Shown here one piece after another: positions 19,432-46,005 of a stretch of 49,298 nucleotides of DNA; position 1 is the stretch's first letter; every line of letters starts with the position of its first letter. The stretch is taken from positions 1 to 49,298 of the forward strand of contig JACPNJ010000002.1 of the NCBI GenBank assembly GCA_016185545.1, given 5' to 3'. The stretch comes from Candidatus Yanofskybacteria bacterium. Lineage in GTDB: Bacteria; Patescibacteriota; Minisyncoccia; 2-02-FULL-40-12; IGHO2-01-FULL-4-A. A program made the translations under genes and the position numbers. Below the pieces are notes generated by a model. That model saw only the letters and a list, made by a program, of their open reading frames with translations, was not told the origin of the DNA and did no database searches.

Positions 19432-19466
19432 CATAATAAAAGCCCCGTTACGGGGCTTTTATTATG
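19432..19466. terminator. Perfect hairpin, probable terminator
   Basis: cataataaaagccccgt-t-acggggcttttattatg. Confidence 0.75.
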
Positions 19467-20994: not shown

Positions 20995-21000
20995 TTTAAA

Positions 21001-29649: not shown

Positions 29650-29664
29650 AATGAGTTAAATATA

Positions 29665-30031
29665 TCTCAAAATTACAAACCTCGCTCCGCCCCTATCATT
29701 TTTCTCTCGGTGTCCCTCACTCCTTAAGAGTCTGGCTCAATCTAGAACTGCCGACGCAGACAGTATCAGATTTTCTTACAACGTCATGCCTTCCTGCAAA
29801 TCTTCCTTAGCGGCCTATCGTTCCTAGCAATTTGCGGTTATCCATTCCCCCTCCGCCTACTGGCTCCGGGGCCCGCAAATTGCCAGCGGAACAATATACG
29901 TCCACTTCGTCAATTTGCTAGTCGGCAGACGAATGACGAAAATCTGATACTGTCTGCTTACAAAATCACATTTGGTACAATGTTCGAAAAATGACAAGGG
30001 CTTCGCTTAGACCGGTTTGTAATTTTTGAGA
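29665..30031. mobile_element. Nested-palindrome (MITE-like) element, family B
   Basis: Termini tctcaaaattacaaacc / ggtttgtaatttttgaga; perfect 20-bp internal stem 29756-29775 / 29938-29957; further inner stems; partial homologue at 48761. Confidence 0.65.
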
Positions 30032-30111
30032 GTTCTTACAACAAAAATGGCTTAAAATAAAGTTTTTTAGGCCAGGCTTTTTTATTTTTCAAGGTTGTTT
30101 GCAGGGGGTTT

Positions 30112-30454
30112 GTTTTTAATCCCTCAAAAATTAGCCCAAGCGGAAGCAGTGCCTTGTCCGAGCGACCTCGCAGCCAAGTAAGTCAGCGAACCGAGAAATA
30201 GGATTTGTCTAAAATTCGGGGTCGAGCCAGCAAATTATTAAATTGTAATCAATTTAATAATTTGCACTCCAAAGAGGCGAGGGGGCTATACAAAGCTTAG
30301 CCCAGCCTTACTTAGGAGTTCAACTCCTAAGTAAGGCTGGGCGGGCACCAGAATTTTAGAAACAAATCCTATTTCAAATGAGCTGATGAGCGCAGGCGAG
30401 GACTAAGCGAGGGCAAGGTACTGCTGGAGCCTAATTTTTGGTGAGATTAAAAAC
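30112..30454. repeat. Nested-palindrome element downstream of lemA
   Basis: Successive arms gtttttaatc/gattaaaaac, caaaaattag/ctaatttttg, gcagtgccttgtcc/gggcaaggtactgc and gaaataggatttgt/acaaatcctatttc; internal 16-bp and 21-bp perfect hairpins. Confidence 0.8.
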
Positions 30455-31001
30455 TGACCTTCACCGGTTCTTTCTCAACGGAATTACCAATCTCAAAAAA
30501 CTGTTCTTTTTTAAATCCAAACATTGAGGCGACCAGATTGGTCGGAACTTGTTCAATCTTGGTGTTGAGTGTTAGCACATTAGTATTATAAAACCTGCGC
30601 GCGGCTTGGATTTTATTTTCGGTGTCGGATAATTCATCCTGCAATTTGGCAAAGTTCTCGGAAGCTCGCAGAGTCGGATACGCCTCAGCCAAAGCAAATA
30701 AACTCTTGAGCGCGCCGGATAGCATATTTTCCGCTTGTCCATGTTCGGCCACAGAATGCGCGCCCATCGCCGCAGACCGCGCCTTGATAACTCGTTCAAA
30801 AACCTCACTCTCATGAGTGGCATAACCTTTAACCGTATTAACAAGGTTTGGAATCAGGTCATATCGCCGCTTTAACTGAACATCAATATCCGACCAGGAT
30901 TCCTTGACCCGATTGCGCGACCTCACCAGCGCATTAAAAGCCCCCGCTAGCCACAAAACAACTACAACTACGATTATTAAAATTATGTATGTAATTGACA
31001 T
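30447..31001 (-). CDS. lemA: LemA family protein
   Basis: WSDIDVQLKRRYDLIPNLV, AEAYPTLRASENF, ARRFYN. Confidence 0.96.
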   Translation of the reverse strand: MSITYIILIIVVVVVLWLAGAFNALVRSRNRVKESWSDIDVQLKRRYDLIPNLVNTVKGYATHESEVFERVIKARSAAMGAHSVAEHGQAENMLSGALKSLFALAEAYPTLRASENFAKLQDELSDTENKIQAARRFYNTNVLTLNTKIEQVPTNLVASMFGFKKEQFFEIGNSVEKEPVKVSF

Positions 31002-31003
31002 AA

Positions 31004-31288
31004 TTAAGATTTGACAAAAACCGCATCTTCTAATTTATCAACTCGCTTTTTAACCTGCTTAATTTCTCTGTTTAGCGACACATCCAAATTTTCTACCTTA
31101 TTTACCACTTCGCAAAGCTCTGATTCTACCCGATCAATCTTATTTTCAAGGACATCAAACCTGCCGTCCATATCCTCAAATCTCTTATCTACTTGCTCAA
31201 ATCTCTTATCTACAGCATTAAAACCATTGCCTACCATTAGGGCTAATTTATCTAAAGTCATTTTGCTCTTTTTGGCGGCTTGTTTCAT
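31004..31288 (-). CDS. Small coiled-coil protein with VDKRFE heptad repeats
   Basis: GFNAVDKRFEQVDKRFEDMDGRF; ATG lies 7 nt after TGt-TATACT. Confidence 0.8.
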   Translation of the reverse strand: MKQAAKKSKMTLDKLALMVGNGFNAVDKRFEQVDKRFEDMDGRFDVLENKIDRVESELCEVVNKVENLDVSLNREIKQVKKRVDKLEDAVFVKS

Positions 31289-31370
31289 TGAGTTGAGTAT
31301 AACATACTACACAAACAAAAACAAAAGCCGAGTTTACTCGGCATTAAGTAATTATCAATATACTCATCTA

Positions 31371-31778
31371 TCAATTAAAATCAATAGTAACCGAATCAAG
31401 GGAATATTTCTTCAATAATGGACGAATGATATTATCCATATAGGCCGTATCCTTCGGAGAATACTGCGCAACGGCATCAAGCACAGCTGACAATTGGACC
31501 GACTGCTGAGGCAATAACCCATGTTTCAGGCAAAAAGAGCAAGCATATTCAATAACGAATCCGACGCATTTTTCCTCTTCTATTTCTGGATAATTATCTT
31601 CAAGTATGGTCAAAATATCATTGACCCTTTTTTCTGTTACGCTACAATCCTTCACTAAAACCCAAATGCTGTCTAAATGCTTGCAATAAGCCGCAAAGGG
31701 TTGAAACGGTTCATGGGATTTATCTACAAAAAATTTTATGATTTCCTCTCTTATTCTTTGAATTTCATCATCACCCAT
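31371..31778 (-). CDS. Hypothetical protein
   Basis: 135-aa ORF with an SD-like aaggaggag upstream. Confidence 0.7.
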   Translation of the reverse strand: MGDDEIQRIREEIIKFFVDKSHEPFQPFAAYCKHLDSIWVLVKDCSVTEKRVNDILTILEDNYPEIEEEKCVGFVIEYACSFCLKHGLLPQQSVQLSAVLDAVAQYSPKDTAYMDNIIRPLLKKYSLDSVTIDFN

Positions 31779-31844
31779 TGCTTCTCCTCCTTATTAAAAA
31801 ACTTGGTAATAAACCAATTATACCATTTTAACTTTATAAAAACA

Positions 31845-33953
31845 TTACTTCTTTCCTTCAATAATTAAATTGGCTACATTTTGGGGTACTTCCTCATAGT
31901 GGTCAAACTCCATATTATACGTTCCGCGGCCTTCGGACAGAGAGCGGATTGTCGTGGCATAACCAAACATTTCCGAAAGTGGAACTTTGGCATCAATCAC
32001 TTTGAGATTAAGCGGCGAACGGTCGGACATCTGTTCAATCCGGCCACGGCGGGAATTGAGATCACCGGTCGTTTCGCCCAAAAATTTATCAGGTATAATT
32101 ACCTCCACTTTCATAATCGGTTCGAGCAAAACCGGCTTGGCGCGTTTCGCGGCTTCCTGCAATGCCATAGCCGCGGCAATCTTGAAAGCGATTTCCGATG
32201 AGTCAACTTCATGATAGGTGCCATCATAAAGCGTAACTTTCAAGTCAACCAGCGGATAACCGGCAATCACGCCTTTATCCAGCGCTTCTCGCACACCTTT
32301 CTCAGCCGCCGGAATAAATTCCTGTGGAATTACACCGCTTTTAATCGCGTCAACAAATTCAAATCCGCCGCCTCGCCCCTGCGGTTCCACGCGCAGCCAA
32401 ACATGGCCGTATTGACCGCGCCCCCCGGATTGTCTGATATATTTGCCCTCGGCTTGGGCGGTTTCCCTGACTGTTTCCTTATAAGCCACTTGCGGACGGC
32501 CGACATTGGCGCCAACGTTGAATTCCCGCTTCATTCTGTCCACTATGATTTCCAGGTGTAATTCACCCATACCTGAAATTATGGTCTCCGCTGTTTCTTC
32601 ATCGGTCTTTATCCTGAATGTCGGGTCCTCGTCGGAAAGTTTTTTCAAAGCCAAGCTCATTTTTTCCTGGTCAGCTTTGGTTTTGGGCTCAATGCGCAAT
32701 GAAATAACCGGCTCTGGGAAAATAATTTTTTCAAGAATAATCGGATTATTCGGATCGCAAAGCGTATCCCCCGTCTTGGTCGCTTTCAGTCCCACCGTAG
32801 CCGCAATCCCTCCGGCATACACTTCTTTAATATCTTCACGGTCGTTGGCGCGCATGCGAAGAATCCTGCCTATTCTTTCCTGATTGCCGGTAGAACTGTT
32901 TAAAACATAAGAACCGGCATTGAGTACTCCCGAATAAACCCTGAAAAATGTCAGTTGGCCAACGAAAGGATCAGTGGCAACCTTAAAAGCCAGCGCGGCA
33001 AACGGCGCATCATCACTCGGTTCACGACTAAGCTCGTTGCCGTTTTTGGGGTCAATTCCCCTTACCGCCGATTTATCTATTGGCGATGGCAGATAATCAA
33101 CAACACCATCAAGCACGAACTGTACGCCCTTATTGCGCAGAGCCGAACCAACAAATACGGGCACCAGTTTGTTATCAATCGTGGCCTTGCGTAATATTTG
33201 CTTGAGCCGCTCAATGCTAATTTCTTTGCCCTCCAGATACTCCGCCATCGCTTCGTCATTATGCTCAACTATTTTTTCCACCAGCTCCGCTCTGGCCGCT
33301 TCCGCATGCTTGCGAAACTCCTCTGACGGAATCTCGGCTTCAACGACGCGCTCCCCAAGCTCACCCTCAAACTTAAAATATTTCATTTCAAGCAGATTAA
33401 TTACGCCCTGAAACTGGTTCTCTTCACCATCGGGAATTTGCATGCGGATGGCATTGGGCGTCAGCCGTTCAAGAATGGATATAAATGATCGCTCGAAGGA
33501 CGCACCCAAACGGTCTAATTTATTGATAAAACAAATTCTCGGCACGCCATACTCATCGGCATAACGCCAGTTGGTCTCCGATTGCGGTTCAACACCGGCC
33601 ACACCGTCAAAAACCACTACCGCGCCGTCAAGTACGCGCAACGACCGTTTAACCTCTACCGTAAAATCAATATGTCCAGGGGTGTCTATTATATTTATGC
33701 GATGCTCAGTGTCTTTGCTTTTGGTCATACCGATTGGCACCCAATAGCTAGTAACAGCTGCAGCAGTAATCGTAATCCCCCGCTCGCGTTCTTGCTCCAT
33801 CCAGTCGGTTACGGTTTCGCCTTCATGCACCTCGCCGATTTTATGGGAAACACCGGTATAAAACAAAACCCGCTCGGTAACAGTAGTTTTACCGGCGTCA
33901 ATATGGGCAATGATGCCTATATTCCTAATTTTTTCGATTGGGAAATCTGACAT
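31845..33953 (-). CDS. fusA: Elongation factor G
   Basis: [49 protein letters not shown]. Confidence 0.99.
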
Positions 33954-34045
33954 TATAAAAAAATAACGCTGGAACAGTTTGCTCTAGCGCCAGCTGATAT
34001 AAAATTTAGTATAGCAAAATTTTAAATCCAGTCAAATTAAATTAT

Positions 34046-34074
34046 TTGCAAAAGGGAGCTGAATTTGGTATATT
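34046..34074 (+). promoter_or_regulatory. sigma70 promoter for rpsT
   Basis: TTGCAA, 17-nt spacer, TGg-TATATT. Confidence 0.65.
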
Positions 34075-34254
34075 ATAACTTACGCGTTTGGCCAAGTTCT
34101 AGGCGAGCACGAGGAGCGAACCGAGGCGTAGTAAAACTACGCCGAGGAAGCACTGGAGTGCTCAACAAAGAAATTGGGCAACCCCTGCGGCTTTGAAGCC
34201 GCGCAAAGCCCAAAAGACATTCGGGCTTCGCGGCGAAAAGCGCGTAAGTTATAA
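34073..34254. repeat. Nested-hairpin element occupying the rpsT 5' UTR
   Basis: Perfect 14-bp termini ttataacttacgcg/cgcgtaagttataa abut the ATG; inner hairpins ggcgtagt/actacgcc, gagcac/gtgctc and gccgcg..agccc/gggct.cgcggc. Confidence 0.75.
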
Positions 34255-34527
34255 ATGCCTATTACTAAATCGGCCAAGAAAGCCCTAAAACAATCAAAAA
34301 GGCGGCAAAAGCAAAACATCAGGCGGAAAATAAAGTTCCGCTCTTTGGTTAAGGAATTCCGTAAGGCCGTCAAGGCCAAGAATTTTGATAAAGCCGAAAA
34401 AATGATCCCGAGTGTTTATAAGGCTTTGGATAAAGCGGCCAAAGGCAAGGCAATCAAGAAAAATACCGCCGACCGAACTAAATCACGGCTTACCCACGCA
34501 TTGAATAAAAACAACAAGACAAATTAA
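34255..34527 (+). CDS. rpsT: 30S ribosomal protein S20
   Basis: MPITKSAKKALKQS...LDKAAK...IKKNTADRTKSRL. Confidence 0.96.
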   Translation: MPITKSAKKALKQSKRRQKQNIRRKIKFRSLVKEFRKAVKAKNFDKAEKMIPSVYKALDKAAKGKAIKKNTADRTKSRLTHALNKNNKTN

Positions 34528-34567
34528 AAAATACTCCCGCTGTTAGGCGGGTATATTTTTTAGGATT

Positions 34568-35665
34568 TTAGGACGAATGTTTGGAAATATTTACCACAAT
34601 GCCAAGCCCGGCTAAAATTGACACCAGCGACGAACTGCCAAAACTTATAAACGGCAATGGCAGTCCGGTCAGCGGAATCAAACCGGAAATGGCAAAAATA
34701 TTGATAAGCGCCTGTCCGCAGATCCAAACAATAATACCCAAAACCAATATACCCCCGAATTGGTTGGCGGCAGATTTGGCGATATTTATCATTGCCAGAG
34801 ACAAAACTAAAAATAATACCAAAAGGAATATGCCGCCTACCAAACCAAGCTCCTCAACAACTATGGCGAAAATTGAATCGCCAACCGGCTCAGGAAGGAA
34901 GTTATTAATTTTCTGACGGCTCTGGCCAAATCCCAAACCGAAAATCCCGCCAGAGCCAATACCCATAAGCGCCTGATTGATATGATATGAAGTATCACGC
35001 TGGTCTGATGATGGATTAAGAAATGCTTTGAGTCGGTCAAATCTGTACGGCTCAACAACCGACAACGCGCCAAGCATGATGCCAACAATCAAAAACAAAA
35101 CGACAAAATGAGTGAATTTAGCACCGGCGAAAAAATACATTGAAATTGCTATCAAAGTAACTAAAATCAGGGTGCCCATATCCGGCTGGGATATCAATAA
35201 CAAGCCGATAAAACCTAGCACCAGTAAAAACGGCACCAGTGATTGCGGACTACCGCCGATCTGCCTGTCACGCCTTGAAAACCAAGCGGCAAGATAAATA
35301 ATCAGGGTAAGTTTCAAAAGTTCTGACGGCTGAAAAGTAAAAAACCCAAAATTCAACCAGCGGTTAGCCCCCCTTAGACCGTAGCCAACACCCGGCACAA
35401 AAACCAAAACCATAAGCCCGACCGCCACTATCAAAAGCGGAAGGGCAATTTTTTTCCAGAATTTGTAATTTATCTTAGAAAAAAGAAAAAAGAGAGCCAG
35501 GCCGGGCAAAACACCGTAAAGAAGCTGGTGCGTAAAATAGTAAGAAGCCGAACCAAAACGTTTTTGGCCTTCAACCACACCAGCCGATGACAGCATGACC
35601 AAACCGAAAACAATGAGGATAAAAATTAAGATGGTCAGGGTTTTGCCGGACTTAGAAATCTGCAT
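34568..35665 (-). CDS. ftsW: SEDS family cell division protein FtsW
   Basis: FGLVMLSSA, GANRWL, FQPSELLK, QPDMGT, GLGFGQSRQK, LPLPFISFGSSS; near mraY. Confidence 0.92.
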   Translation of the reverse strand: MQISKSGKTLTILIFILIVFGLVMLSSAGVVEGQKRFGSASYYFTHQLLYGVLPGLALFFLFSKINYKFWKKIALPLLIVAVGLMVLVFVPGVGYGLRGANRWLNFGFFTFQPSELLKLTLIIYLAAWFSRRDRQIGGSPQSLVPFLLVLGFIGLLLISQPDMGTLILVTLIAISMYFFAGAKFTHFVVLFLIVGIMLGALSVVEPYRFDRLKAFLNPSSDQRDTSYHINQALMGIGSGGIFGLGFGQSRQKINNFLPEPVGDSIFAIVVEELGLVGGIFLLVLFLVLSLAMINIAKSAANQFGGILVLGIIVWICGQALINIFAISGLIPLTGLPLPFISFGSSSLVSILAGLGIVVNISKHSS

Positions 35666-35683
35666 TGTGGTAATGGCCGACCT

Positions 35684-35902
35684 CTTAAAATTACAAACTT
35701 AACCAGCAAAAAAAACTCATTGACCGGCTACACGCGCGTGTTTTGCTGGCCCTTCGGGACAGGCGCAAAACGCGCGCGCCTCCGCCGGTAAACCCGCCCC
35801 AGCTCTTTACTGGTAAAGAGCTGGGCTAGAACTCTATCTTAGCAATAATCTTTGTGATAAAAATCGCTGATTGCTATCAGCTCCCGTGTTTGTAATTTTA
35901 AG
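35684..35902. mobile_element. Nested-palindrome element with family B termini
   Basis: Perfect 15-bp termini cttaaaattacaaac / gtttgtaattttaag; inner hairpins cgcgcgtgttttgc/gcaaaacgcgcgcg and cccagctctttac/gtaaagagctggg. Confidence 0.6.
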
Positions 35903-36374
35903 GTGGCAAAGGGGTAACTTCCACAAAATAATTATAAATAGTAAAGCCCATGAAAAAACCGGTTCTGCCAACAATTTCTAGTATTATGTAGCGAGCTTCG
36001 TTAATGTGCAACAACAAAAATGTGGCATCAAAAAACAAGAAAAACAGACACCAAATCCTGAACCAAAAATTTTCTTTCTCTACCCTAATAACTTCCGATG
36101 AAAACAGATTCTCTTCTGCTTTGTTGCATAAGTAAATCTTTCTTAAAAAGATTACACCAAAAAAGAAAAGAAAGAAGATATCAAGCACAGGAAAAATTGT
36201 TTTGATTGTTAAAAATGGTATGAAATAATTTAAGGCCCTCATAAATAATTCTAACAGGGCCATGAAAATCCCGATTTTGGCAAAGAAATAGCATGTCAGC
36301 CCGGTCAGTTTTTGGAACCAATGGCTGAATTTAGTAATTTTTTCAATGATCTTTCTGTCAAGCGCTTCCAGCAT
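35898..36374 (-). CDS. Hypothetical membrane protein
   Basis: AT-rich ORF with ~4 hydrophobic segments and SD-like aggag; stop codon lies inside the element terminus, so it may be truncated. Confidence 0.65.
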   Translation of the reverse strand: MLEALDRKIIEKITKFSHWFQKLTGLTCYFFAKIGIFMALLELFMRALNYFIPFLTIKTIFPVLDIFFLFFFGVIFLRKIYLCNKAEENLFSSEVIRVEKENFWFRIWCLFFLFFDATFLLLHINEARYIILEIVGRTGFFMGFTIYNYFVEVTPLPP

Positions 36375-36440
36375 TTTATACTCCTACTAGGTTCGTGTTA
36401 TAAAAATTATCTTAACATTTTATAAAGTTGATGTCAAATT

Positions 36441-37526
36441 TCAAAGTAGCGGCGGAATCTTGGAGTCAACCAAGAAAATTATTAACCCTATAATGGCACC
36501 GATCGCCGAAATCATCCAGAAGCGCATTGTAACTTGAGTTTCGGGCCAACCGCGGGCTTCAAAATGGTGGTGGATGGGAGTTGAAAGAAATATTTTTTTG
36601 CTACGAATTTTTTTAGAAACAATTTGGATAATCACCGAGCCGGATTCAATTATAAATATTACCCCGATTGGTATTAAAAGAAGTGGCGTATTTGTAAGCA
36701 TTGCTATTATACCCAACACCACGCCCAGAGACATAGACCCGGTATCACCCATAAAAAATTTGGCCGGGAAAATGTTGTGCCATAAAAACGCGACCAGCGA
36801 ACCCATAATCGCCGCGATAAAAACCACCAGATCCATCCTGCCCTGGTCAAAAGCAATCGCGCCATAAGCGGCAAATATCGTCAAAAATACGCCCGCCGCC
36901 AAACCATCCAAACCGTCGGTTTCATTAGCGGAAAATGAAGTAGCGACAATTATAAAAATAAAAAACGGAATATACCACCAGCCGATAGTAAAATCGCCTA
37001 AAAACGGAATATTTAGTGAATTAAAACCAAGCTTATAGAAAAACCACCAAGCGCCGCCGCCAGCCACAACCGCGTAAAGCAATAAGCGGTACTTCATTCT
37101 TAATCCGCCGCCCTTGGGACCGATACGCATGATCCCCAGTAAATCATCGGCTAATCCGACCAGCGCCGCGACAACTAAAGCGCCTAGCGGCAGCAATGTC
37201 TGCCCGCGGGAAAAAAAGTTAACTCGCGACCAAAATCCGTCAATGGATTTTGAAAGATACCAAAAAACCAAAGTTATGATAGTTACCGTCAGCCAAATCA
37301 AAATCCCACCCATAGTCGGAGTGCCTTCTTTTGCTTTATGCAATCTGTTAAAAATCGGGGCACCTTCAGTCCGCAACTGCTTGCCTAACTTATACTTATA
37401 CAAAACCTTCATCCAAATCGGCGTCAGCGCTAACGTGACGAAAAACGCCAATGTCGCCACGGTAAATATGCGGACTACATTGAAAATTGTGAAAACATTA
37501 TCAATCACAAGAAATTTAAAATGCAA
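36441..37526 (-). CDS. mraY: Phospho-N-acetylmuramoyl-pentapeptide transferase
   Basis: KEGTPTMGG, GLADD, NETDGLDGLA, FMGDTGS, PIHHHFE; start codon uncertain. Confidence 0.97.
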   Translation of the reverse strand: MHFKFLVIDNVFTIFNVVRIFTVATLAFFVTLALTPIWMKVLYKYKLGKQLRTEGAPIFNRLHKAKEGTPTMGGILIWLTVTIITLVFWYLSKSIDGFWSRVNFFSRGQTLLPLGALVVAALVGLADDLLGIMRIGPKGGGLRMKYRLLLYAVVAGGGAWWFFYKLGFNSLNIPFLGDFTIGWWYIPFFIFIIVATSFSANETDGLDGLAAGVFLTIFAAYGAIAFDQGRMDLVVFIAAIMGSLVAFLWHNIFPAKFFMGDTGSMSLGVVLGIIAMLTNTPLLLIPIGVIFIIESGSVIIQIVSKKIRSKKIFLSTPIHHHFEARGWPETQVTMRFWMISAIGAIIGLIIFLVDSKIPPLL

Positions 37527-37591
37527 ATCTCAAAATTAAAAATGACAATTTAAAATTTAAAAAAATGCATTTTGCATTGTTCACTTTCAAT

Positions 37592-38530: not shown

Positions 38531-38537
38531 TTAGCTC

Positions 38538-38700
38538 GGGCTTGACGGGCAATACCTCCTATCACCATTTGAATTCCCAGCGAGAATTCTGCATTCCGTC
38601 AAAAGCGTGGATTTTACTCGCAGTGTTTTACTATTATACTGCTCGCAAACCGTGCAATCCACTCTTTTGACGGTGCTATGAGGCATTGCCTGTCAAGCCC
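38538..38700 (-). repeat. Structured repeat family A, copy 1 (inverted relative to copies 2 and 3)
   Basis: Reverse complement matches 45855-45990 closely: atgcctcatagcaccgtcaaaagagtggattgcacggtttgcgagcagtataatagtaaa...; own outer stem gggcttgac/gtcaagccc. Confidence 0.9.
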
Positions 38701-39288
38701 TCATGATAACCCGCCAGTCATTTCCAAAACTGCGTTTAATGCGCTAGGCAACTCAGTTACGCCGTCGCTACCGCTAAAATGACCTTTGTCGTGCTCAATT
38801 ATGATTTTAGTGTTCAGCCTCTCTTCGAATAACTTTTTATTTTCTTCAAAGGGCACAACCGGATCATTATCACCAAAAATTGCTACGAAATTATTTGTTA
38901 AGCCCTTTATTAAATTAAAATTGATCGGGGTTTCAATCCAAGGTCTGCCAATTATTTTTTCTTCTTCTGTTTCTAAATCGCCCAGAACAAACCAGCCAGA
39001 TACAAAAACCGTACCGCCAACTTTTTTATCTACGGGTAAACTTTCCAAATATCGCAAAATGGTCTGACAACCGATACTGTGGCCAACAAAAAAAGTATTT
39101 TCATTAACATCACCGACAATTTTGGAAAGATGCGAAACCCACACCTCAATTTTTGGCACAGCAGGTTCTGGCATAGCCGGAACTTGCACCTCAAAACCGC
39201 GTGATTCTAATTCTTTTTTCAACCACGGAAACCAGCCCTCTTCGGGGTAACCGTCCCAACCGTGAATTATAAAAACCCCTTTTTTCAT
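38701..39288 (-). CDS. RBBP9/YdeN family alpha/beta hydrolase
   Basis: IIHGW...WFPWL, GHSIG nucleophile elbow, DNDPVVP, GHF. Confidence 0.92.
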   Translation of the reverse strand: MKKGVFIIHGWDGYPEEGWFPWLKKELESRGFEVQVPAMPEPAVPKIEVWVSHLSKIVGDVNENTFFVGHSIGCQTILRYLESLPVDKKVGGTVFVSGWFVLGDLETEEEKIIGRPWIETPINFNLIKGLTNNFVAIFGDNDPVVPFEENKKLFEERLNTKIIIEHDKGHFSGSDGVTELPSALNAVLEMTGGLS

Positions 39289-39310
39289 CTTAGACTTAAG
39301 AGAGAGAACC

Positions 39311-39505
39311 CCGTCAAAAATTATTTAAAGCGAGCCATTATGCCTTATAGCACCGTTGAAAGAGTGGATTGCACGGTCGCCGAGCAGTATAATGTTTGGG
39401 CGGTAGCCCACTGCGAGGCGAATCCACGCTTTCAACGGAGCGACGCAACCTCGCTGGGGTTGCTAGCGGTGATAGAAGGCATGATGGCGAGCTAATTTTT
39501 GACGG
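39311..39505 (+). repeat. Structured repeat family A, copy 2
   Basis: Core atgccttatagcaccgttgaaagagtggattgcacgg...aatccacgctttcaacgg...gcaacctcgctggggttgc...ggtgatagaaggcat; extra outer stem ccgtcaaaaatta/taatttttgacgg. Confidence 0.9.
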
Positions 39506-39514
39506 TGGCGAGTG

Positions 39515-40933
39515 TTATTTTTTAATTTGTAAATGTAGCTCTTTCAACTGTTTTTCTTCCAATTCGGAGGGACTGTTCATCATAAGGTCTCGGGCATCAC
39601 CGGTTTTGGGAAAGGCAATCACCTCGCGGATATTTGGTTCGTTGGCAAGTATCGCCACTAGGCGGTCCAATCCCCAAGCGATACCGCCATGCGTCGGCGC
39701 ACCATAACTGAACGCCTCTAGCATATGCCCAAAATTTTTGGTAATTCTTTCCTCATCTAATCCTAAAATTTCAAAAACTTTTTTTAATGCTTCGGCCTTG
39801 TGGTTACGGATACTGCCACCGCCTATTTCAAAACCATTCAATATAATATCATACTGCGTAGTCAAAATCTCACCGATATTTTTCTTTTGCATCAGCCATT
39901 CCATGTGTTCCGGTTTTGGCGCGGAAAAAGGATTATGCGTGAAAGTCCACTTCTTCGCTAAAGCTTCGAAGTGCGCAGCACCCTCTTTTTCTTTTTCAAA
40001 AAACGGAAAATCAATCACCCAGCAGAATGCCAAAAGATCGGGGTCGTCAGGGTGTTCACGTAAATCTGGCCTGTCAGTCTTGTATTTTTCCATTGCCTCT
40101 TTGTAAGTTAACCGCGGGAACGGAATTTCCTGAATCTTTTTATTCGGCATTACATTTTTTATCAACTCAATCAATAATGCTTCATTCACCGCCATCACAT
40201 CTTCGCGCTCCACAAAAGACATTTCCATATCCATCTGTGTAAATTCCGGCTGTCTGTCGCCGCGCGTATCCTCATCGCGAAAACTTCTGGCGATTTGGAA
40301 ATATTTCTCAATACCAGCCACCATCAAAAGCTGTTTATATTGCTGGGGCGATTGCGGCAAGGCGTAAAATTTGCCGGAATACAAACGAGAAGGCACCACA
40401 TAATCCCTCGCTCCTTCGGGAGTAGATTTGGTCATAATCGGAGTTTCAATTTCCAAAAATCCCTCCCTATCAAAAAAATCTCGAATAAACTTGGTTACCC
40501 GATGCCGCAGAGCCATATTTTTGGATAATCTCTCGCGCCGCAGATCAAGATAACGGTATTTCATCCGATTTTCCTCACCTATTTCGCGTCCGTCCGTATC
40601 AAGAGCAAAGGGCGGCGTAGCCGCCTCTGATAAAACCTCAATTGATTCCGGCTGTACTTCTATGTCGCCAGTTTCAATTTCTTTATTTACCATCGCTGAC
40701 GGCCGTTTAGCAACCTTGCCTGACACTTTTAAAACCCACTCCGAGCGCAGAGTTTCGGCAGTTTTATACAGTTCTTTATCCTGTGGCGTAAAAACCAGTT
40801 GAACAATTCCCGATTTATCGCGCAAATCAATAAAAATTATCTTACCGTGATCCCGCCGGCCATGCACCCAACCAAAAAGTTCCACGTTTTCATCAGCTTT
40901 ATTTTTTGTATAAGCAATCAGTGTCCTACTCAT
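39515..40933 (-). CDS. aspS: Aspartate--tRNA ligase (short form lacking the GAD insertion; likely non-discriminating)
   Basis: GWVHGRRDHGKIIFIDLRD, YRYLDLR, PEGARDY, LPQSPQ, FRDED...RQPEFTQ, GGGSIR, HGGIAWGLDRL. Confidence 0.96.
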   Translation of the reverse strand: MSRTLIAYTKNKADENVELFGWVHGRRDHGKIIFIDLRDKSGIVQLVFTPQDKELYKTAETLRSEWVLKVSGKVAKRPSAMVNKEIETGDIEVQPESIEVLSEAATPPFALDTDGREIGEENRMKYRYLDLRRERLSKNMALRHRVTKFIRDFFDREGFLEIETPIMTKSTPEGARDYVVPSRLYSGKFYALPQSPQQYKQLLMVAGIEKYFQIARSFRDEDTRGDRQPEFTQMDMEMSFVEREDVMAVNEALLIELIKNVMPNKKIQEIPFPRLTYKEAMEKYKTDRPDLREHPDDPDLLAFCWVIDFPFFEKEKEGAAHFEALAKKWTFTHNPFSAPKPEHMEWLMQKKNIGEILTTQYDIILNGFEIGGGSIRNHKAEALKKVFEILGLDEERITKNFGHMLEAFSYGAPTHGGIAWGLDRLVAILANEPNIREVIAFPKTGDARDLMMNSPSELEEKQLKELHLQIKK

Positions 40934-40967
40934 AATTATATGGTAGTACACAAATTAAATTTAGGCA

Positions 40968-41003
40968 AAAACAAAAGCCAGCTTATGAGCTGGTTTTTGT
41001 TTT
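40968..41003. terminator. Probable terminator hairpin
   Basis: aaaacaaaagccagct-tatg-agctggtttttgtttt. Confidence 0.7.
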
Positions 41004-41170
41004 ATGAACGCTCAGTCTTGTCCCACTATACTTTTGTTGAAAATAACGCCATCTACATAATCTCACCCCGCCCCATCTGAAATAAGGGTCGCTTTAAGCA
41101 ATTAACTAATACCACGACTCGCCTTCGGCTCTAGTTATTTTTACACAAAACCCTAGCCCAGAAAGGGCGG

Positions 41171-41230
41171 GGTAAATATCTGCGACCGTACTCGTTCGCT
41201 TCGCTTACTGCGTGCGGGCAGCTATTTACC
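41171..41230. repeat. Hairpin whose outer arm overlaps the rpsG stop codon
   Basis: ggtaaata...tatttacc encloses ctgc/gcag and ccgtac/gtgcgg around a ttcgcttcgc loop. Confidence 0.55.
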
Positions 41231-41693
41231 ACGCAAAATGCGCGAAAGCTTTATTGGCTTCCGCCATACGATGAGTATCGGTTTTCTTTTTGATGGCCAC
41301 GCCGGTGTTGTTGTAGGCGTTGATAATTTCCTGCGCCAGTTTTTCCCGCATCGGTTTGCCCTTGCCCGATCGGGCCGCGTCAATTATCCAGCGAAACGCA
41401 AGCGCAAGTTTGCGCTCTCCCCTCACCTCGTAGGGCACCTGGTAATTGGCGCCGCCGATTCTGCGCGATTTCAGTTCCATTTGGGGACCGGCATTATTAA
41501 ACGCGGCATCCAGCACTTCAAGCGCCGGTTTTTTTAATTCTTTTTCCGCCAACTCCAAAGCTCCATAGACGATTTTCTCGGCTATGGATTTTTTGCCGCT
41601 TTCCATTACTTTATTGATAAACTTGGCCACCAAAAGCGACGAATATTTATAATCCGGTTCCTGTATTATTTTTTTCTTTATTGGCTTACGCAT
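41226..41693 (-). CDS. rpsG: 30S ribosomal protein S7
   Basis: [41 protein letters not shown]. Confidence 0.98.
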
Positions 41694-41717
41694 ATTTGTT
41701 ATTGCTCACCTTGGATT

Positions 41718-42596
41718 TTATTTTGGGTACCACCGAACCGGCCGAATCCACCCGTTATATTTTCCCGTCTCGTAAGGTATTATACCCATATCGGCAAGCG
41801 ACCGTTCAGCCTCAATGCCTTGAGGCAATGATCTTACACGAATAAATAGGTCGTCTGCCAAATCAGTGTTTGGGCTTGGATATGGCGTACCTATTATTTC
41901 CAAAATTTCTTTTTTATTGAATTCTATATTTTCAATTTCAATAATTAAACCGGGCACAATATCTTCCAGGGTCGGGGTCAACCAGGTTTTTTCCTTAACA
42001 AATCTAGGATTTTTGGACGGTCTTTCGCGATCCCATTCTTCATCCCAATGCTTAATGACATCCTCAATTGATTCCTCGCTCTCTTTTGTTTCTTGCTCTG
42101 CAAATTGATGCATCGGCATTTTAGTTTTTGGCTGTTTGCTTTCTGCCTCTCCTCGAATAATGGCATCAATCTCCGGCAGGTAGCTAAGAAACTTATTTTT
42201 AAGCACCGTGAGCGCAAACCCTCTTCGGCTCTGGTTTTTAAATATGGTCGGACTTAATTTTTTGACTAGCTCTCCCAATTCCTTGTTGATTGCGCTCTTG
42301 GCCCCCTCATAATTCCCGCTTGCGATAATATCAAAAATTTTGCCGTGAAGTTCTTCAAAAACGTTTTCCTTTAAACTCTCCGCCGCTATTTCCCAAAATA
42401 ATTTTTCCCTCATAACCTCATCGGGCTCTAAATTTTTCAATTGTTCGCGTGTTAGTTTAAGAAGCGGCTCAATGTCTTCTTCGCCGTGGCCTTCAATTAC
42501 GTCTCGCACAGACTCGCTAATCTCTTTTTTCAAATTCAAATATTCTTTTGATTCTTGTATGCTTTTTTTACCTAATTTTTCTAGAGTGGTTGTCAT
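41718..42596 (-). CDS. Hypothetical protein inserted between rpsL and rpsG
   Basis: 292-aa Glu/Lys-rich ORF, co-oriented with both neighbours. Confidence 0.8.
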   Translation of the reverse strand: MTTTLEKLGKKSIQESKEYLNLKKEISESVRDVIEGHGEEDIEPLLKLTREQLKNLEPDEVMREKLFWEIAAESLKENVFEELHGKIFDIIASGNYEGAKSAINKELGELVKKLSPTIFKNQSRRGFALTVLKNKFLSYLPEIDAIIRGEAESKQPKTKMPMHQFAEQETKESEESIEDVIKHWDEEWDRERPSKNPRFVKEKTWLTPTLEDIVPGLIIEIENIEFNKKEILEIIGTPYPSPNTDLADDLFIRVRSLPQGIEAERSLADMGIIPYETGKYNGWIRPVRWYPK

Positions 42597-42625
42597 TATA
42601 ACTAACAGCTAGTTATCGGAAATAT

Positions 42626-43039
42626 CTAGCTCTTAGGCATCTTGGCTCCATATCTGCTTCTGCCACGCTTCCTGTTTTCAACTCCGGAAGCATCCAGCCG
42701 GCCGCGTATTATATGGTATTGCACGCCAGGCAAGTCCTTAACCCTGCCGCCGCGCAATGTTACTACGGAATGCTCCTGCAAATTATGGCCAACGCCGGGA
42801 ATGTACGCCGTTACTTCCATGCCATTGGTCAGCCGCACACGGGCGAATTTGCGCAAAGCGGAATTCGGTTTCTTGGGAGTCATCGTGCCGACTTTTATAG
42901 CCACGCCGCGTTTGAACGGCGCCGGATAATCAACCGGCGTATTTTTCTTGCTGTTAAATCCAAACGACAAAGCCGGCGATCTGGTTTTAGCTTTGGACTT
43001 CTTGCGCGGATGTTTTAATAACTGGTTTAAGGTAGGCAT
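42626..43039 (-). CDS. rpsL: 30S ribosomal protein S12
   Basis: [36 protein letters not shown]. Confidence 0.99.
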
Positions 43040-43173
43040 ACACTATCAGCGAATAACGAATTTATACTAAATATACTAATTTACGAAAAGTTTAGGGTTC
43101 ATTTATTTGTATATTCGTAACGACGTTATTCGTTGGTAATTTTTCGGCTAATTAAAAGGGGGTTCAAACCTCC

Positions 43174-43785
43174 CTATCCTACTATAAGCCGAAAGATTAA
43201 ATTAATCAAGGGGTAAACAAAAGGAAATATAAAAATTAAAAAAATAAAGAAAAGAACTAAACCGTATCTCATAAGGAATAGCTTGAGAGCGGCAAATCTA
43301 TTTGGTAGAAATGCCAAAAGCAGCCAATGGCCGTCAAGAGGAGGAATTGGCGCCAAATTGAATATCGCCAAAAGAAGGTTTATTCTAACGATGAAACTTA
43401 TCAATAAAGGCAGCGCCGTTGATTCTAAACTTGAGGGTAAAAATCTTAAAAATAATCCGAAAAGAACTGCCAACACAAGGTTAGATGCCGGTCCTGCCAG
43501 CGCTACTTTTGCTGATCCGAATTTGAGATCGGTTAGATTGGCGGGATTATGCGGTACGGGTTTAGCATAACCAAACACAAATGAAGATCTGGCTAGAATC
43601 AAAAGAAGCGGCAGTATAACCGAACCGAACATGTCCAGATGTTTCAATGGATTTAGGGTGAGACGGCCGGCATTTTTTGCAGTATCATCACCCAAACTGT
43701 TGGCAACGATACCATGAGAAACCTCATGCACAACAACAGAATAAATGAAAACAACTGCTACGAAAACGCCTTCTAAAATTCCCAT
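43174..43785 (-). CDS. Site-2 protease family (M50) membrane metalloprotease
   Basis: HEVSH, GRLTLNP, LAGPASN, FNLAPIPPLDG. Confidence 0.94.
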   Translation of the reverse strand: MGILEGVFVAVVFIYSVVVHEVSHGIVANSLGDDTAKNAGRLTLNPLKHLDMFGSVILPLLLILARSSFVFGYAKPVPHNPANLTDLKFGSAKVALAGPASNLVLAVLFGLFLRFLPSSLESTALPLLISFIVRINLLLAIFNLAPIPPLDGHWLLLAFLPNRFAALKLFLMRYGLVLFFIFLIFIFPFVYPLINLIFRLIVG

Positions 43786-43787
43786 GT

Positions 43788-43816
43788 TTGCTAATTTAGC
43801 AGATTTTTGTTATATT
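43788..43816 (+). promoter_or_regulatory. sigma70 promoter for rpmB, overlapping the divergent M50 promoter
   Basis: TTGCTA, 17-nt spacer, TGt-TATATT. Confidence 0.6.
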
Positions 43817-43832
43817 GTAAATTGATCATGCC

Positions 43833-43967
43833 CCGCTCCAATTTTGCAAAGTAGTGAGTGGCAGTGCCTCTCCCGCGAAACCACTATTCGTGGCCGGGCA
43901 CTGCAAAAGCTGGGCAAGTTTAATTTTTATCTAAAATTAAGAGGAGCAACGGGTAAAATTTGAGCGG
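43833..43967. repeat. Nested-hairpin element in the rpmB leader
   Basis: ccgctccaattttgc / gtaaaatttgagcgg encloses gcagtgcc/ggcactgc and ttaatttt/aaaattaa. Confidence 0.6.
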
Positions 43968-44008
43968 AGTGCTTATTTTGTTACCCAATCGCTTCACTTT
44001 TGGACAAA

Positions 44009-44191
44009 ATGGCAACTCGTTGCCCTCGTTGCGGAAAAAAACCGATGACGGCGAACAAACGAAAACTTTTGCGCGGTAATTATAATCCCGTAAACCGCTA
44101 CCGCAAATATCCCAATCTTCAATGGGCTCATGTTGACGGTAAGAGAATCAGGATTTGCACCTCGTGTATTAAAACGCTAAATAAAGCTTGA
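44009..44191 (+). CDS. rpmB: 50S ribosomal protein L28
   Basis: CPRCGK...R.YPNLQ...RIRICTSCIK, zinc-binding L28 type. Confidence 0.88.
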   Translation: MATRCPRCGKKPMTANKRKLLRGNYNPVNRYRKYPNLQWAHVDGKRIRICTSCIKTLNKA

Positions 44192-44694
44192 TGGGTAATT
44201 TTCTTGAAAAATCCGCGACTCAAAAAGAAGTTATTTTAGAATCTGACAATTCTGGACCAAAACAGATTTTAGAAAAATATTCAGATATAATTGGTAACGA
44301 TGGCATTTTTAAAAAGATCGCCGGATCTATAGAGGACGGCTGGCAGGAACTTAGCCCAAAAGGTAAACAAGACATATCTAAAGAGGTTGAAACCCTAATT
44401 AATAAATTGATAGATTATCATGATTCTTATGTTAATCTAAAAGGACTTGCCGGTAGGCGGTTTTATTTTGAAGATACTAAAAAACTTCAGGAAAGCGCCA
44501 AGGCAACAGATATGCGCGAGAAAATATTGCACGATGCCTTTGTGGATTCGCTTAATATACTTTCAAGAAAAATGAAGAAACTGGGACTTGATAACTCTTG
44601 GCGCGCAGATGAAGAGATATATGGCCTAACACCGAAAGCGGCTCGGGAAAAGCCAAAACTTTGGATGTTTAAGATTTTTAGAGAAAAAATATAA
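44191..44694 (+). CDS. Hypothetical helical protein (possibly DUF3232-like)
   Basis: TGATG coupling with rpmB; motif ILHDAFVDSLNILSR. Confidence 0.7.
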   Translation: MGNFLEKSATQKEVILESDNSGPKQILEKYSDIIGNDGIFKKIAGSIEDGWQELSPKGKQDISKEVETLINKLIDYHDSYVNLKGLAGRRFYFEDTKKLQESAKATDMREKILHDAFVDSLNILSRKMKKLGLDNSWRADEEIYGLTPKAAREKPKLWMFKIFREKI

Positions 44695-44703
44695 ATCGGG
44701 GTA

Positions 44704-44777
44704 CGGGCCGTCGTATAATGGTAGTACGCGAGGCTGGGGGTCTTGCAGCGGGAGTTCGATTCTCCCCGGCCCGACCA
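44704..44777 (+). tRNA. tRNA-Pro(GGG)
   Basis: CGGGCCG/CGGCCCG-A-CCA, anticodon loop ctGGGgg, T-arm GGGAG-TTCGATT-CTCCC. Confidence 0.95.
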
Positions 44778-44779
44778 CA

Positions 44780-44815
44780 ATCAAAAACCATACGATTAAT
44801 CGTATGGTTTTTGAT
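44780..44815. terminator. Perfect 36-bp palindrome, bidirectional terminator between convergent genes
   Basis: atcaaaaaccatacgatt-aatcgtatggtttttgat. Confidence 0.8.
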
Positions 44816-44821
44816 ATAAGA

Positions 44822-45307
44822 TCATGACCTTTGCCACTCGGTTTTAACGCCCTTGAGCTGGTTTTCCGTCATTACCAATTCATCGTATATTCCGTCAATT
44901 AGCTGATATGATTTTGCTTCTTCAAGAGTTACCCACTTGAAATCATCGGTTTCATCATGTTGAAGCGCAACTTCACCCGATTGATAGTCAGCCAAACAAG
45001 AAATGACCAGGGATGGATTTCCGTCACCGTGCACCGTGGCCAAACTTGTCACATACGTGATGTTTGTGATTTCCAGTCCGACCTCTTCCTTAACCTCGCG
45101 ACGCAAAACTTTTTCTAATACATTATACCAATAATCAGTCGCGTCTTTGGGTAAGTTAATGTAATCATCCGTCTCCAGTTTGCCGCCGGGGACCGTCCAC
45201 ATACCAGGAAAGCGTTTTTTATTTGAAGAACGGCGGGTAATCAAATACTTGCCGTCTTTGACGATAATCGCAGTAATGGCCACTTCGTGTAAAAATTTAT
45301 TTTCCAT
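44822..45307 (-). CDS. NUDIX hydrolase
   Basis: WTVPGGKLE...LRREVKEEVGL Nudix box with an insertion. Confidence 0.92.
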   Translation of the reverse strand: MENKFLHEVAITAIIVKDGKYLITRRSSNKKRFPGMWTVPGGKLETDDYINLPKDATDYWYNVLEKVLRREVKEEVGLEITNITYVTSLATVHGDGNPSLVISCLADYQSGEVALQHDETDDFKWVTLEEAKSYQLIDGIYDELVMTENQLKGVKTEWQRS

Positions 45308-45322
45308 AAATTAAACAATAAC

Positions 45323-45826
45323 TCAATCCTCCTTTAAAGTAAATTTCGTATATGATGGCTTATGTTCTACTAATTCTTCCGGCTTAAACCAAACATTAAT
45401 TTCTGTCTGCGCTTCCTCGGGTGAAGCCGAGGCGTGAATAAGATTAAAAACTCCGATTTTCTTGTCATCAGCATAACCATATGAAACGTGGGTATAGTCA
45501 CCCCTGATAGTGCCAGACGCGGCAACCTTGGGTTCGGTAGCGCCCACCATTTTTCTTGCAACCTCAACCATTTCTATACCCTCAAGTGCTAATGCCAAAA
45601 TAGGTCCGGAGGTCAGCATATCAATCATCCTTTGCCTAATTACATCTCCCCTCCTTTTGGCCAAATCTTCGGTATAATGCTTCATGGCAGTATCTTTTTC
45701 AGAAACAAGAACTTTCATGCCGACAATTTTAGCGCCTACACGCTCAAAACGAGTGATTATTTCACCGATTATTCCTCGATCAAGAGCATCAGGTTTTAAT
45801 AAAATTAGGGTTCTCTGCAGTTTCAT
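45323..45826 (-). CDS. ndk: Nucleoside diphosphate kinase
   Basis: RTLILLKPDA, GTIRGDY, NLIHAS. Confidence 0.96.
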   Translation of the reverse strand: MKLQRTLILLKPDALDRGIIGEIITRFERVGAKIVGMKVLVSEKDTAMKHYTEDLAKRRGDVIRQRMIDMLTSGPILALALEGIEMVEVARKMVGATEPKVAASGTIRGDYTHVSYGYADDKKIGVFNLIHASASPEEAQTEINVWFKPEELVEHKPSYTKFTLKED

Positions 45827-45838
45827 TGTTTTTAATTT

Positions 45839-46005
45839 TAGAGTTGGGTGAGTAATGCCTCATAGCACCGTCAAAAGAGTGGATTGCACGGTTTGCGAGC
45901 AGTATAATAGTAAATCACTGCAAGCAAAATCCACGCTTTTGACGGAACGCAGCAACCTCGCTGGGGTTGCTAGTGGTGATAGGAGGCGTTACTCACCCAA
46001 CTCTA
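45839..46005 (+). repeat. Structured repeat family A, copy 3
   Basis: Same core as copies 1 and 2; 23-bp outer stem tagagttgggtgagtaatgcctc / gaggcgttactcacccaactcta overlaps the last codons of the upstream gene. Confidence 0.9.

Follow-up and report, generated by a model that had tools for sequence, protein, structure and literature searches.

The question raised by this locus is why palindromic inserts lying between genes form outer stems that are complementary to the ends of those same genes. The host (G000) is a groundwater bacterium of the candidate phyla radiation with a very compact genome of 853 kb, and the window, that is the whole stretch of DNA that was analysed, covers 49,298 nucleotides. 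A sequence-only reading had placed such complementarities at the ends of MBL, lemA, rpsG and an ORF at 35898, and had reasoned that either insertion creates an inverted copy of its target or selection keeps each insert looped out, both of which would be unusual mechanisms. All four complementarities are present in the sequence, and the outer arms of a family indeed vary from copy to copy. The arms, 13-31 nt long, are far beyond chance; their parts that overlap coding sequence are shorter (2-17 nt). We consider it very probable that the inserts, located in gene junctions, represent several families of mobile repeats (MITE/REP/REPIN-like) that are small and non-coding and are palindromes in themselves. 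Judged from comparisons of sequence, among them those with empty sites in two species of the same genus, the outer stems at MBL, the 35898 ORF and rpsG are the elements' own terminal inverted repeats and not inverted copies of the target. Since these inverted-repeat ends simply reach into stop codons or replace them, an exotic insertion mechanism is unnecessary, and the arms being the elements' own repeats leaves the proposed unusual mechanism unsupported.

The insert between MBL and ndk belongs to a family, here called family A, with further copies in the stretch:

45839..46005, plus strand: family A type 2, between the MBL stop and the ndk start.
38538..38700, minus strand: family A type 2, between the serine-hydrolase stop (38701-38703) and the dacA start (38530).
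39309..39508, plus strand: family A type 1, between the aspS stop and the serine-hydrolase start, an A core within arms TCAAAAATTA / TAATTTTTGA.
38701..39288, minus strand: serine-hydrolase gene, with a family A copy on either side, the two inverted relative to each other.

In the MBL-ndk element, outer arms of 17 nt enclose a conserved core of 133 nt (45856-45988). These arms pair at 17 of 17 positions (45839-45855 with 45989-46005) and are contained in longer arms of 31 nt with 90% complementarity. The final four codons of MBL (ELGE) and its stop (45989-45991) are encoded by the right arm. The site is empty in three relatives, where the spacer measures 12 nt (G005), 13 nt (G014) or 20 nt (G016); there MBL has endings such as KIVN* or KIK*, and both arms are missing, as opposed to the one native arm that an inverted target copy would leave. 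At the second type 2 copy, arm 38672-38700 directly adjoins the TGA at 38701-38703, an abutment that had been reported correctly. At the site in G006 orthologous to the type 1 copy, outer arms and flanks are identical and the interior is different. The serine-hydrolase gene between aspS and dacA was not found in G005, G006 or G021.

Elements of other families touch the 35898 ORF, rpsG and rpsT:

35685..35901, no strand assigned: family E element, terminal repeat TTAAAATTACAAAC / GTTTGTAATTTTAA, whose end supplies the ORF's TAA.
41171..41230, minus strand: family C hairpin at the very end of rpsG (stop at 41226-41228), arms GGTAAATAnCTGC.
41066-41172: second module near rpsG, CCCCGCCC...GGGCGGGG.
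34074..34253, no strand assigned: palindromic element upstream of rpsT, arms TATAACTTACGCG / CGCGTAAGTTATA.

The stop of the 35898 ORF (35898-36374) occupies 35898-35900, within arm 35888-35901, which is paired with 35685-35698. This stop lies in the element's terminus and is element-derived, contrary to what an inverted target copy would entail; the ORF is shortened by about 29 codons relative to its orthologs in G005 and G006, and on its right side the element is flanked by sequence orthologous to the G006 copy. At rpsG, 41171-41178 (GGTAAATA) and 41223-41230 (TATTTACC) pair at 8/8 positions, and the surrounding 13-nt arms at 12/13. The native TGGTAA of rpsG is thereby paired, as a copied target would be, but the arm equals the conserved family C terminus and recurs in four other copies. 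One observation counts against our explanation: in G005, which has no element at rpsG, the 7 nt after the Trp codon (TAAATAG) are the same as the family C terminus. The rpsT element lies between divergent genes at a site that is empty in G005, and its arm 34241-34253 stops one base short of the rpsT ATG (34255), again as had been described.

The lemA-pyrG spacer also counts against this explanation, in that the native gene end itself is mirrored there. It holds two elements:

30112..30454, minus strand: composite element 'B', downstream of lemA, in three nested layers.
29665..30032, no strand assigned: family D element with terminal inverted repeats TCTCAAAA(A)TTACAAAC.

The layers of 'B' are an outer hairpin (TCTCACCAAAAATTAG... 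/ ...CTAATTTTTGAGGGA), a B core that is also found in G002, and an apical palindrome (30300-30342), the only part that belongs to the repeat named REP2. Positions 30112-30121 (GTTTTTAATC) and 30445-30454 (GATTAAAAAC) pair at 10/10 positions within 24-nt arms that are 79% complementary, and the outermost 8-10 nt of 'B' pair with the native lemA end SF* (stop at 30447-30449). In G005 the spacer is 0 nt, and this empty site keeps the native lemA end AGTTTTTAA, which is mirrored as TTAAAAAC beyond the element in G000. Mirrored native sequence was seen only at lemA and is a T-run/A-run (GTTTTTAA / TTAAAAAC) around TTAA. An 8-nt mirror of this kind is unlikely by pure chance, unless the ancestral site was, as we infer, already a T-run/A-run palindrome. 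The empty sites thus answer in two ways: at MBL and the 35898 ORF the arms belong to the element, which supplies the stop, and at lemA a native end takes part in the stem.

Family A is represented by 15 copies in G000 and has matches in 24 of 61 relatives, with 7-15 dispersed copies per genome that lie in both orientations relative to the neighbouring genes. The elements are small (repeats here measure 130-350 nt) and have no coding capacity. A coding reading of the family, based on a 52-aa ORF at 45855-46013, was rejected: indels between copies break the ATG-led frame and are not multiples of three, so that the frame differs between copies, which argues against a peptide. Core identity reaches 95-98% in comparisons of species with fusA genes that are 80-85% identical at the DNA level. 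The core folds into three helices with invariant unpaired stretches and conserved A.G mismatches, and is 90-98% conserved across species. The arms of type 2 copies follow a loose consensus (GAGCTTGG..AATGCC) at unrelated sites and in different genomes and, since the copies have this consensus in common, belong to the element. Outer ends with TA on both sides fit 3 of 7 type 2 copies and the rpsT element, and no consistent target duplication could be read in the type 2 copies.

The closing stem of family A is hypervariable and covaries nonetheless. Both sides have changed in 32 of the 53 pairs, as judged from 29 copies in 11 genomes; 96.8% of cells are paired, as compared with 81.8% in shuffles (0/500 reach the observed value) and 37-41% when the partners are slid. 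This covariation indicates that the pairing is under selection, and it is in this sense only that the earlier suggestion of selected stems holds up. Because the stem changes its sequence and yet always pairs, it is the pairing and not the sequence that is selected, most likely reflecting a folded single strand that would be recognised during copying. That recognition depends on structure, and that the elements are selfish, would fit these data. Built-in stops are below expectation at the ends of family A, where 87/174 frames close within 60 nt as against a proportion of about 0.71 in shuffles; stops are not enriched, so their supply appears incidental.

The explanation that we prefer, namely that each outer stem is the terminal inverted repeat of its own element or of an older element with a newer one inserted in its apex, probably accounts for the contacts with genes as follows. 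Because native spacers are only about 0-30 nt, an insert that spares both genes would necessarily contact a stop or a start. An insert landing in the last codons would survive when the element happens to bring an in-frame stop; ends supplied in this way are those of MBL (...KI|ELGE*), of the truncated 35898 ORF and of a third ORF, on contig C1, whose end reads SRLGE*. Flanks that are short and AT-rich or palindromic (TA, TTAA, T-run/A-run) would add a few native bases to the inverted repeat, as would terminal bases that are common to the element and a stop (TAA, TAG), which would apply to lemA and rpsG. The present set of inserts would then be the insertions that the cell could survive, and the exotic mechanism proposed earlier is removed.

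The same pattern extends across the genome. Syntenic junctions of G000 and its congener G006 differ by at least 60 nt in 253 of 469 cases, and we examined 62 junctions at which just one of the two genomes carries an insert. Insert length has a median of 101 nt, and on each side of the hairpin a median of 6 nt are unpaired. At least 70% of the insert forms one hairpin domain in 50 of the 62. The fraction of a segment that falls in its dominant hairpin domain separates poorly from shuffles (0.85 vs 0.77); folding energy alone is clearly apart from them (-33 vs -17 kcal/mol). The dominant hairpin pairs at least one base of the stop codon at 26 of the 62 junctions, and the position of the stop is unchanged in 35 of 43 evaluable pairs. 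A further group is defined by the conserved terminal repeat TCAAAAATTACAAAC, whose 10-mer has 32 matches vs about 3.8 expected. A family marked by ATCCCGTACGA sits at ATGA overlaps with TGA at one foot of the hairpin and ATG at the other, and only in this family is a target duplication (TGAA, TGGA or TTTA) clear. Inserts are thus polymorphic between species. The window is contained in four DNA runs of groundwater metagenomes from one study, which may be its source; the runs listed as containing it include none of RNA. Over 29500-46200, contigs of these four runs revealed neither a clean empty allele nor an excised form; they break at repeats, and the short sides of their joints are 20-38 letters.

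Among the other explanations, the one that survives best is that host selection keeps the inserts as closed hairpins, so that the stop and the next start adjoin on a polycistronic mRNA. The near-complete hairpins with few unpaired bases, the covarying closing stem, the feet of the ATCCCGTACGA hairpins, and the presence of inserts at 67 of 375 co-directional junctions (in the ribosomal-protein operon at nearly every one) would all agree with it. However, family A occurs in both orientations relative to the flanking genes, the same palindromy is found upstream of rpsT, next to a tRNA gene and outside operons, and REPINs, as described in part of PMC3116915, have a like compensatory pattern without such a role. 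Since palindromy is a property of whole families, it needs no selection at individual sites. As an account of these sequences, such selection seems unlikely to us, though it may act beside terminal inverted repeats carried by the elements themselves.

Less probable still is a role of family A as a functional structured RNA (such as a ribozyme, a processing site or a protein-binding RNA) that the cell keeps, as opposed to selfish DNA. Its strong covariation, the conservation of the core with its invariant unpaired stretches and A.G mismatches, and a fold of the forward strand that in 14/14 copies is no less stable than that of the reverse strand could be read in this way. Against it stand the presence or absence of copies at orthologous sites, their mixed orientation relative to flanking genes and their number of dispersed copies per genome. 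Rfam 15 likewise matched no element at the gathering threshold in the whole window, and hits with E up to 5 over 29600-46100 were at chance level only. The idea that the flanking target is duplicated in inverted form upon insertion, one arm being native and the other copied from it, is very improbable: the mirrored lemA end, the paired rpsG TGGTAA and the nesting of several copies in further palindrome layers favour it, but it appears largely refuted by the empty sites, type 2 arms are homologous between unrelated sites, complementarity past the terminal repeat in 20 TCAAAAATTACAAAC-group elements is about background (4.15/12 positions vs a null of 3.28 +/- 0.38), and direct duplication of a palindromic TA or TTAA alone would extend an inverted repeat.

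G000 has four Y1_Tnp genes above the Pfam cut-off, encoding 221-224 aa with the motifs NHYH and GRYK; in NCBIfam they match best to REP_Tyr_transpos ('REP-associated tyrosine transposase') at 23-38 bits, far under the equivalog cut-off of 80. These genes are flanked by REP-like palindromes, REP1 at the gene on contig C1 and REP2 at the other three, and the single Y1 gene of G006 is also flanked by REP2 matches. Dispersed hairpins in G000 number 25 REP2-like and 10 REP1-like, and many REP2 copies lie in frame inside ORFs. In the sequences of families A, C, D and E that we saw, neither REP1 nor REP2 occurs. Moreover, a Y1 match is absent from 9 of the 24 family A genomes, including G008 and G016 (98% complete, with 9 and 11 copies), so that Y1 genes do not track family A. 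A search of G000 for DDE_3, the one DDE family searched, gave no match, and no pair of terminal repeats was found in G000 or G006 to enclose a transposase-sized interior; these searches yielded no autonomous partner for family A or the TCAAAAATTACAAAC group.

A more speculative reading, which we regard as doubtful, is that structure and not end sequence may be what identifies family A as a mobile element, with a three-helix core and a freely varying closing stem of about 15 bp. The element would be kept 90-98% identical across species and moved by machinery that is no obvious DDE partner and not clearly the RAYT-like Y1 enzymes. It might be one of a guild of palindromic, 'operon-safe' inserts found in bacteria of the candidate phyla radiation, of which another member duplicates TGAA at ATGA overlaps and would thereby regenerate the stop and the ATG at the hairpin feet. 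Our search of the literature on the candidate phyla radiation found no account of palindromic mobile inserts at a large share of junctions. Here, one genome of 853 kb has inserts at many junctions, ribosomal-protein operons included, together with four RAYT-like transposases and nested elements, which bears on the tolerance of selfish DNA by streamlined genomes. Gene calling in such genomes is also affected, because repeats can supply C-terminal tails and stops.

Among known systems, MITEs of the Correia/NEMIS, ERIC and RUP type come first, and with these we group Chunjie, which we presume to be comparable. According to parts of PMC2229807, bacterial MITEs end in TA, carry terminal inverted repeats, fold by pairing one end with the other (5' with 3') and occur as fusions to ORFs. 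As in the portions of PMC2229807 and PMC3184786 that concern Correia/NEMIS, ERIC and RUP, the elements described here are small, non-coding and multi-copy, their ends pair into one long stem-loop, and they lie mainly between genes or within operons, are sometimes fused to ORF ends and are present or absent at orthologous sites. Unlike MITEs, type 2 family A copies keep their terminal repeat in pairing and not in sequence (a loose consensus only); no TA duplication is established for them, and no related IS/DDE transposase was found (DDE_3 in G000).

The REP/REPIN-RAYT system offers a second parallel, since the four Y1_Tnp genes here are each flanked by their own short palindrome, and the hairpins carry compensatory changes, which are common in REPIN hairpins according to part of PMC3116915. 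Families A, C, D and E differ from REPs and REPINs in lacking REP1/REP2 and in not being doublets of one REP. The system as a whole differs in the Y1 scores (23-38 bits against a cut-off of 80), in the many REP2 copies in frame inside ORFs, and in the occurrence of family A in nine genomes with no detectable Y1 gene. With Rickettsia palindromic elements there is no relation in sequence, and copies here are mostly intergenic, with a conserved three-helix core in family A. As part of PMC2229807 describes for the Rickettsia elements, however, palindromes lie in or at the ends of coding genes and are translated, here as ELGE* and SRLGE* tails and LRGSASK inserts.

The complementarities that the sequence-only reading had noted between the outer stems of the palindromic inserts and the ends of neighbouring genes are all present, confirming that part of it. 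The comparison with empty sites, the criterion set beforehand, refutes its proposal that insertion creates an inverted target copy. The genome holding the window (G000) comprises 853,191 bases in 8 contigs (GC content about 42%, completeness given as 100%), belongs to a small bacterium within the candidate phyla radiation, and has the window as the first 49,298 bases of its contig C3. Between 28 and 47 kb of the window the genes lie mostly on the minus strand, and two genomes of the same genus, G005 and G006, are syntenic with this region, in which the gene order is:

First half: pyrG, lemA, fusA, rpsT (plus strand), ftsW, 158-aa ORF, mraY, dacA
Second half: serine hydrolase, aspS, rpsG, 292-aa ORF, rpsL, M50 peptidase, NUDIX protein, ndk, MBL-fold protein

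The 292-aa ORF (41718-42596), without a Pfam match, separates rpsL from rpsG in G000, whereas their spacing is 2-5 nt in G005 and G006. Blocks of 290-570 nt at 12119-24255, each with 7-10 repeats within the genome, are probably repeats inside large genes.

At the MBL-fold gene, 45839-45855 and 45989-46005 pair at 17 of 17 positions within 31-nt arms; at lemA, 30112-30121 and 30445-30454 pair at 10 of 10; and at rpsG, 41171-41178 and 41223-41230 pair at 8 of 8, within 13-nt arms pairing at 12 of 13. The stop of the ORF at 35898-36374 (35898-35900) lies within an arm (35888-35901; partner arm 35685-35698), another arm ends at 38700 with a TGA directly after it (38701-38703), and a third ends at 34253, one base ahead of the rpsT ATG.

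Comparison of the genome with itself revealed several repeat families. Family A is built on a 133-nt core and numbers 15 copies, namely 7 of type 2, in which arms of about 15 nt adjoin the core, 7 of type 1, in which arms TCAAAAATTA / TAATTTTTGA enclose it, and 1 truncated. A second group (families D, E and their relatives) has in common the terminal repeat TCAAAAATTACAAAC, whose 10-mer was counted 32 times where about 3.8 would be expected; most of these form inverted pairs at a distance of 180-690 nt. Family C has four further copies besides that at rpsG. The lemA element consists of three nested layers, because its copy in the relative G002 has the same core without the outer TCAAAAATTAG arms and without the apical palindrome. 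None of the elements matched any Rfam family. The named records that carry a repeat of this genome are metagenome-assembled genomes (MAGs) with titles such as Candidatus Yanofskybacteria, Paceibacteria or Patescibacteria group, which places the organism in the candidate phyla radiation.

The MBL-fold gene of G000 ends in GQNYKI followed by ELGE and stop, ELGE and stop being element arm, with the mirror arm at the insert's far end. In G005 the gene ends in GQNYKIVN and stop, 5 nt ahead of the ndk ATG, and the junction is compact in two further relatives, G014 (spacer 13 nt) and G016 (20 nt). These empty orthologous sites have neither arm, which speaks against an inverted copy of the target there. 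In G006, nearly the same place is occupied by a copy of a different subfamily, whose arms show compensated changes relative to those of G000, with the native KIVN and stop retained downstream. In G036, from another family of the same order, the junction (locus L018) holds an unrelated 229-nt palindromic element that carries the module TGTGGATT / AATCCACA.

The lemA end is native, since its TAA directly adjoins the pyrG ATG in G005; in G000 about 800 nt with two elements separate the two genes. The mirror of this end beyond the element, TTAAAAAC, would be accounted for if the insert had entered a T-run/A-run (GTTTTT.AAAAAC), whether or not TTAA was duplicated, an ancestral state that we infer; G006 has a different element here, without such pairing. 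The orthologs of the 35898 ORF in G005 and G006 run on for about 29 codons (...PLPPGKSK...), the G000 frame closes at a TAA within the element terminus, and the other flank of the element is orthologous to the G006 copy just upstream of ftsW; the change is a deletion next to the element. All five genomes compared share the native rpsG end TGGTAA. The arm there (TAAATAGCTG...) is the conserved terminus of family C, and pairing is extended by no more than the GG of the Trp codon, since a C-run follows the opposite arm. Downstream of rpsG, G005 (L021, contig C15, about 4660-4680) reads TGGTAAATAG and is without an element; the 7 nt after the Trp codon, TAAATAG, are the same as the family C terminus, perhaps as a scar or through a target preference.

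Two cases elsewhere in G000 agree with the picture from these four sites. On contig C8, a type-2 arm begins with the TAG that stops a gene, and behind the other arm stands a TAA; the G006 ortholog has a plain TAA, and the arrangement fits a TA duplication at the stop. On contig C1, an ORF ends in SRLGE and stop within an arm, and its G006 ortholog in CPKI and stop.

That outer arms differ between copies, as the sequence-only reading held, was also seen for the type-2 arms of 11 genomes and 32 further loci of named MAGs, which vary greatly. They follow a loose consensus (GAGCTTGG..AATGCC) with a constant stem length of 21-23 bp, and near-identical arms recur at unrelated sites of different genomes; therefore, type-2 arms are homologous parts of the element. 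Past the terminal repeat, 20 complete elements of the second group show complementarity at 4.15 of 12 positions, compared with 3.28 +/- 0.38 under the null, so that any extra pairing amounts to at most a base or two and not to an inverted target copy.

Selection that keeps stop and next start adjacent on the mRNA was the other explanation put forward; selection on pairing is real, borne out by closing-stem covariation across 29 family A copies, and such adjacency would be only one possible purpose of it. RNAalifold predicted 53 pairs in their alignment, 32 of them with changes on both sides; paired cells made up 96.8%, against 81.8% in shuffles (observed value reached by 0 of 500), and fell to 37-41% with partners slid. 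Covariation was found in 14 of the 15 pairs of the outer helix. In 14 of 14 family A copies the fold of the forward strand is no less stable than that of the reverse, and copies are found in both orientations relative to flanking genes. Together these two observations suggest that a single strand takes up the relevant fold, which may matter to the element itself rather than to host mRNA.

Crude ORF calls gave 543 reciprocal best hits between G000 and G006 (median amino-acid identity 77%) and 469 syntenic adjacent gene pairs, with spacers differing by at least 60 nt in 253. Of the 375 co-directional junctions, G000 is filled and G006 nearly empty at 51, and the opposite holds at 11. The median insert in these 62 pairs is 101 nt, and at least 70% is one hairpin domain in 50 of the 62, flanked on either side by a median of 6 unpaired nt. 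Aligned to the empty ortholog, the stop has not shifted in 35 of 43 evaluable pairs (6 have it later, 2 earlier), and part of the stop codon is paired in 26 of the 62. Since empty spacers measure only 0-45 nt, a tolerated insert must touch stop or start. Stops are not enriched at family A ends; the supply of stops is therefore incidental, and the visible copies are survivors.

A ribosomal-protein operon (G000 C1:318000-338000) has a hairpin at nearly every gene junction, against 0-30 nt in G006. Many consist of heptamers, repeated as (AGGTGTC)n along the 5' arm and as (AACCTGT)n along the 3' arm, and often begin with the TAG stop; those seen all have one orientation relative to the coding strand. 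The aspS-dacA junction (window 38531-39514) is a hot spot, empty in the relative G021 and with one element in G006. Here G000 has the serine-hydrolase gene between two inverted family A copies, and G005 a different ORF flanked by an E element and an element with an A-like module; outer arms and flanks are common to G000 and G006, but interiors differ. A further palindromic family with ends TCCCGTACGA / TCGTACGGGA (G000 C1:186013-186135, G006 C3:135705-135828 and others in each) is flanked by direct repeats TGAA, more rarely TGGA or TTTA; where stop and start overlap as ATGA, the left hairpin foot is left with a TGA, and the right foot gains a new ATG formed by the element's A plus TG.

Four G000 proteins exceed the Pfam cut-off for Y1_Tnp, with REP-associated tyrosine transposase as top NCBIfam match, under the model cut-off. 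These RAYT-like Y1 transposase genes lie at:

C1:261647-262318
C4:46287-46952
C5:49053-49715
C5:94964-95635

Each is flanked by a short palindrome (REP1 at one, REP2 at three); G000 has 10 REP1-like and 25 REP2-like hairpins, and the lemA element apex is one REP2. Family A contains neither, and a Y1 match is absent in 9 of the 24 genomes having family A matches. A DDE_3 gene was looked for in G000 and not found. Copies of the 21-nt REP2 palindrome are also present in frame within ORFs, where they encode LRGSASK-like inserts, two or three of them within the Y1 genes themselves. A single reverse-transcriptase ORF (336 aa, C1:43040-44050), with family D-like repeats 3-6 kb away, has a group II intron RT/maturase as top NCBIfam match, far under cut-off.

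A full-text literature search turned up no account of such repeats for the candidate phyla radiation. The closest kinds are the bacterial MITEs (Correia, ERIC, RUP and Chunjie, the last of which we take to be one) and the REP/REPIN-RAYT systems. For MITEs, passages of one report describe terminal inverted repeats, TA termini and target duplications, as well as transcripts forming long stem-loops through pairing of 5' and 3' ends, and fusions to ORFs (PMC2229807). Compensatory changes are common in the REPIN hairpin, and RAYTs are proposed as the movers of REPINs, according to sections of another (PMC3116915). Our elements belong to a known kind, to which the individual families are new.
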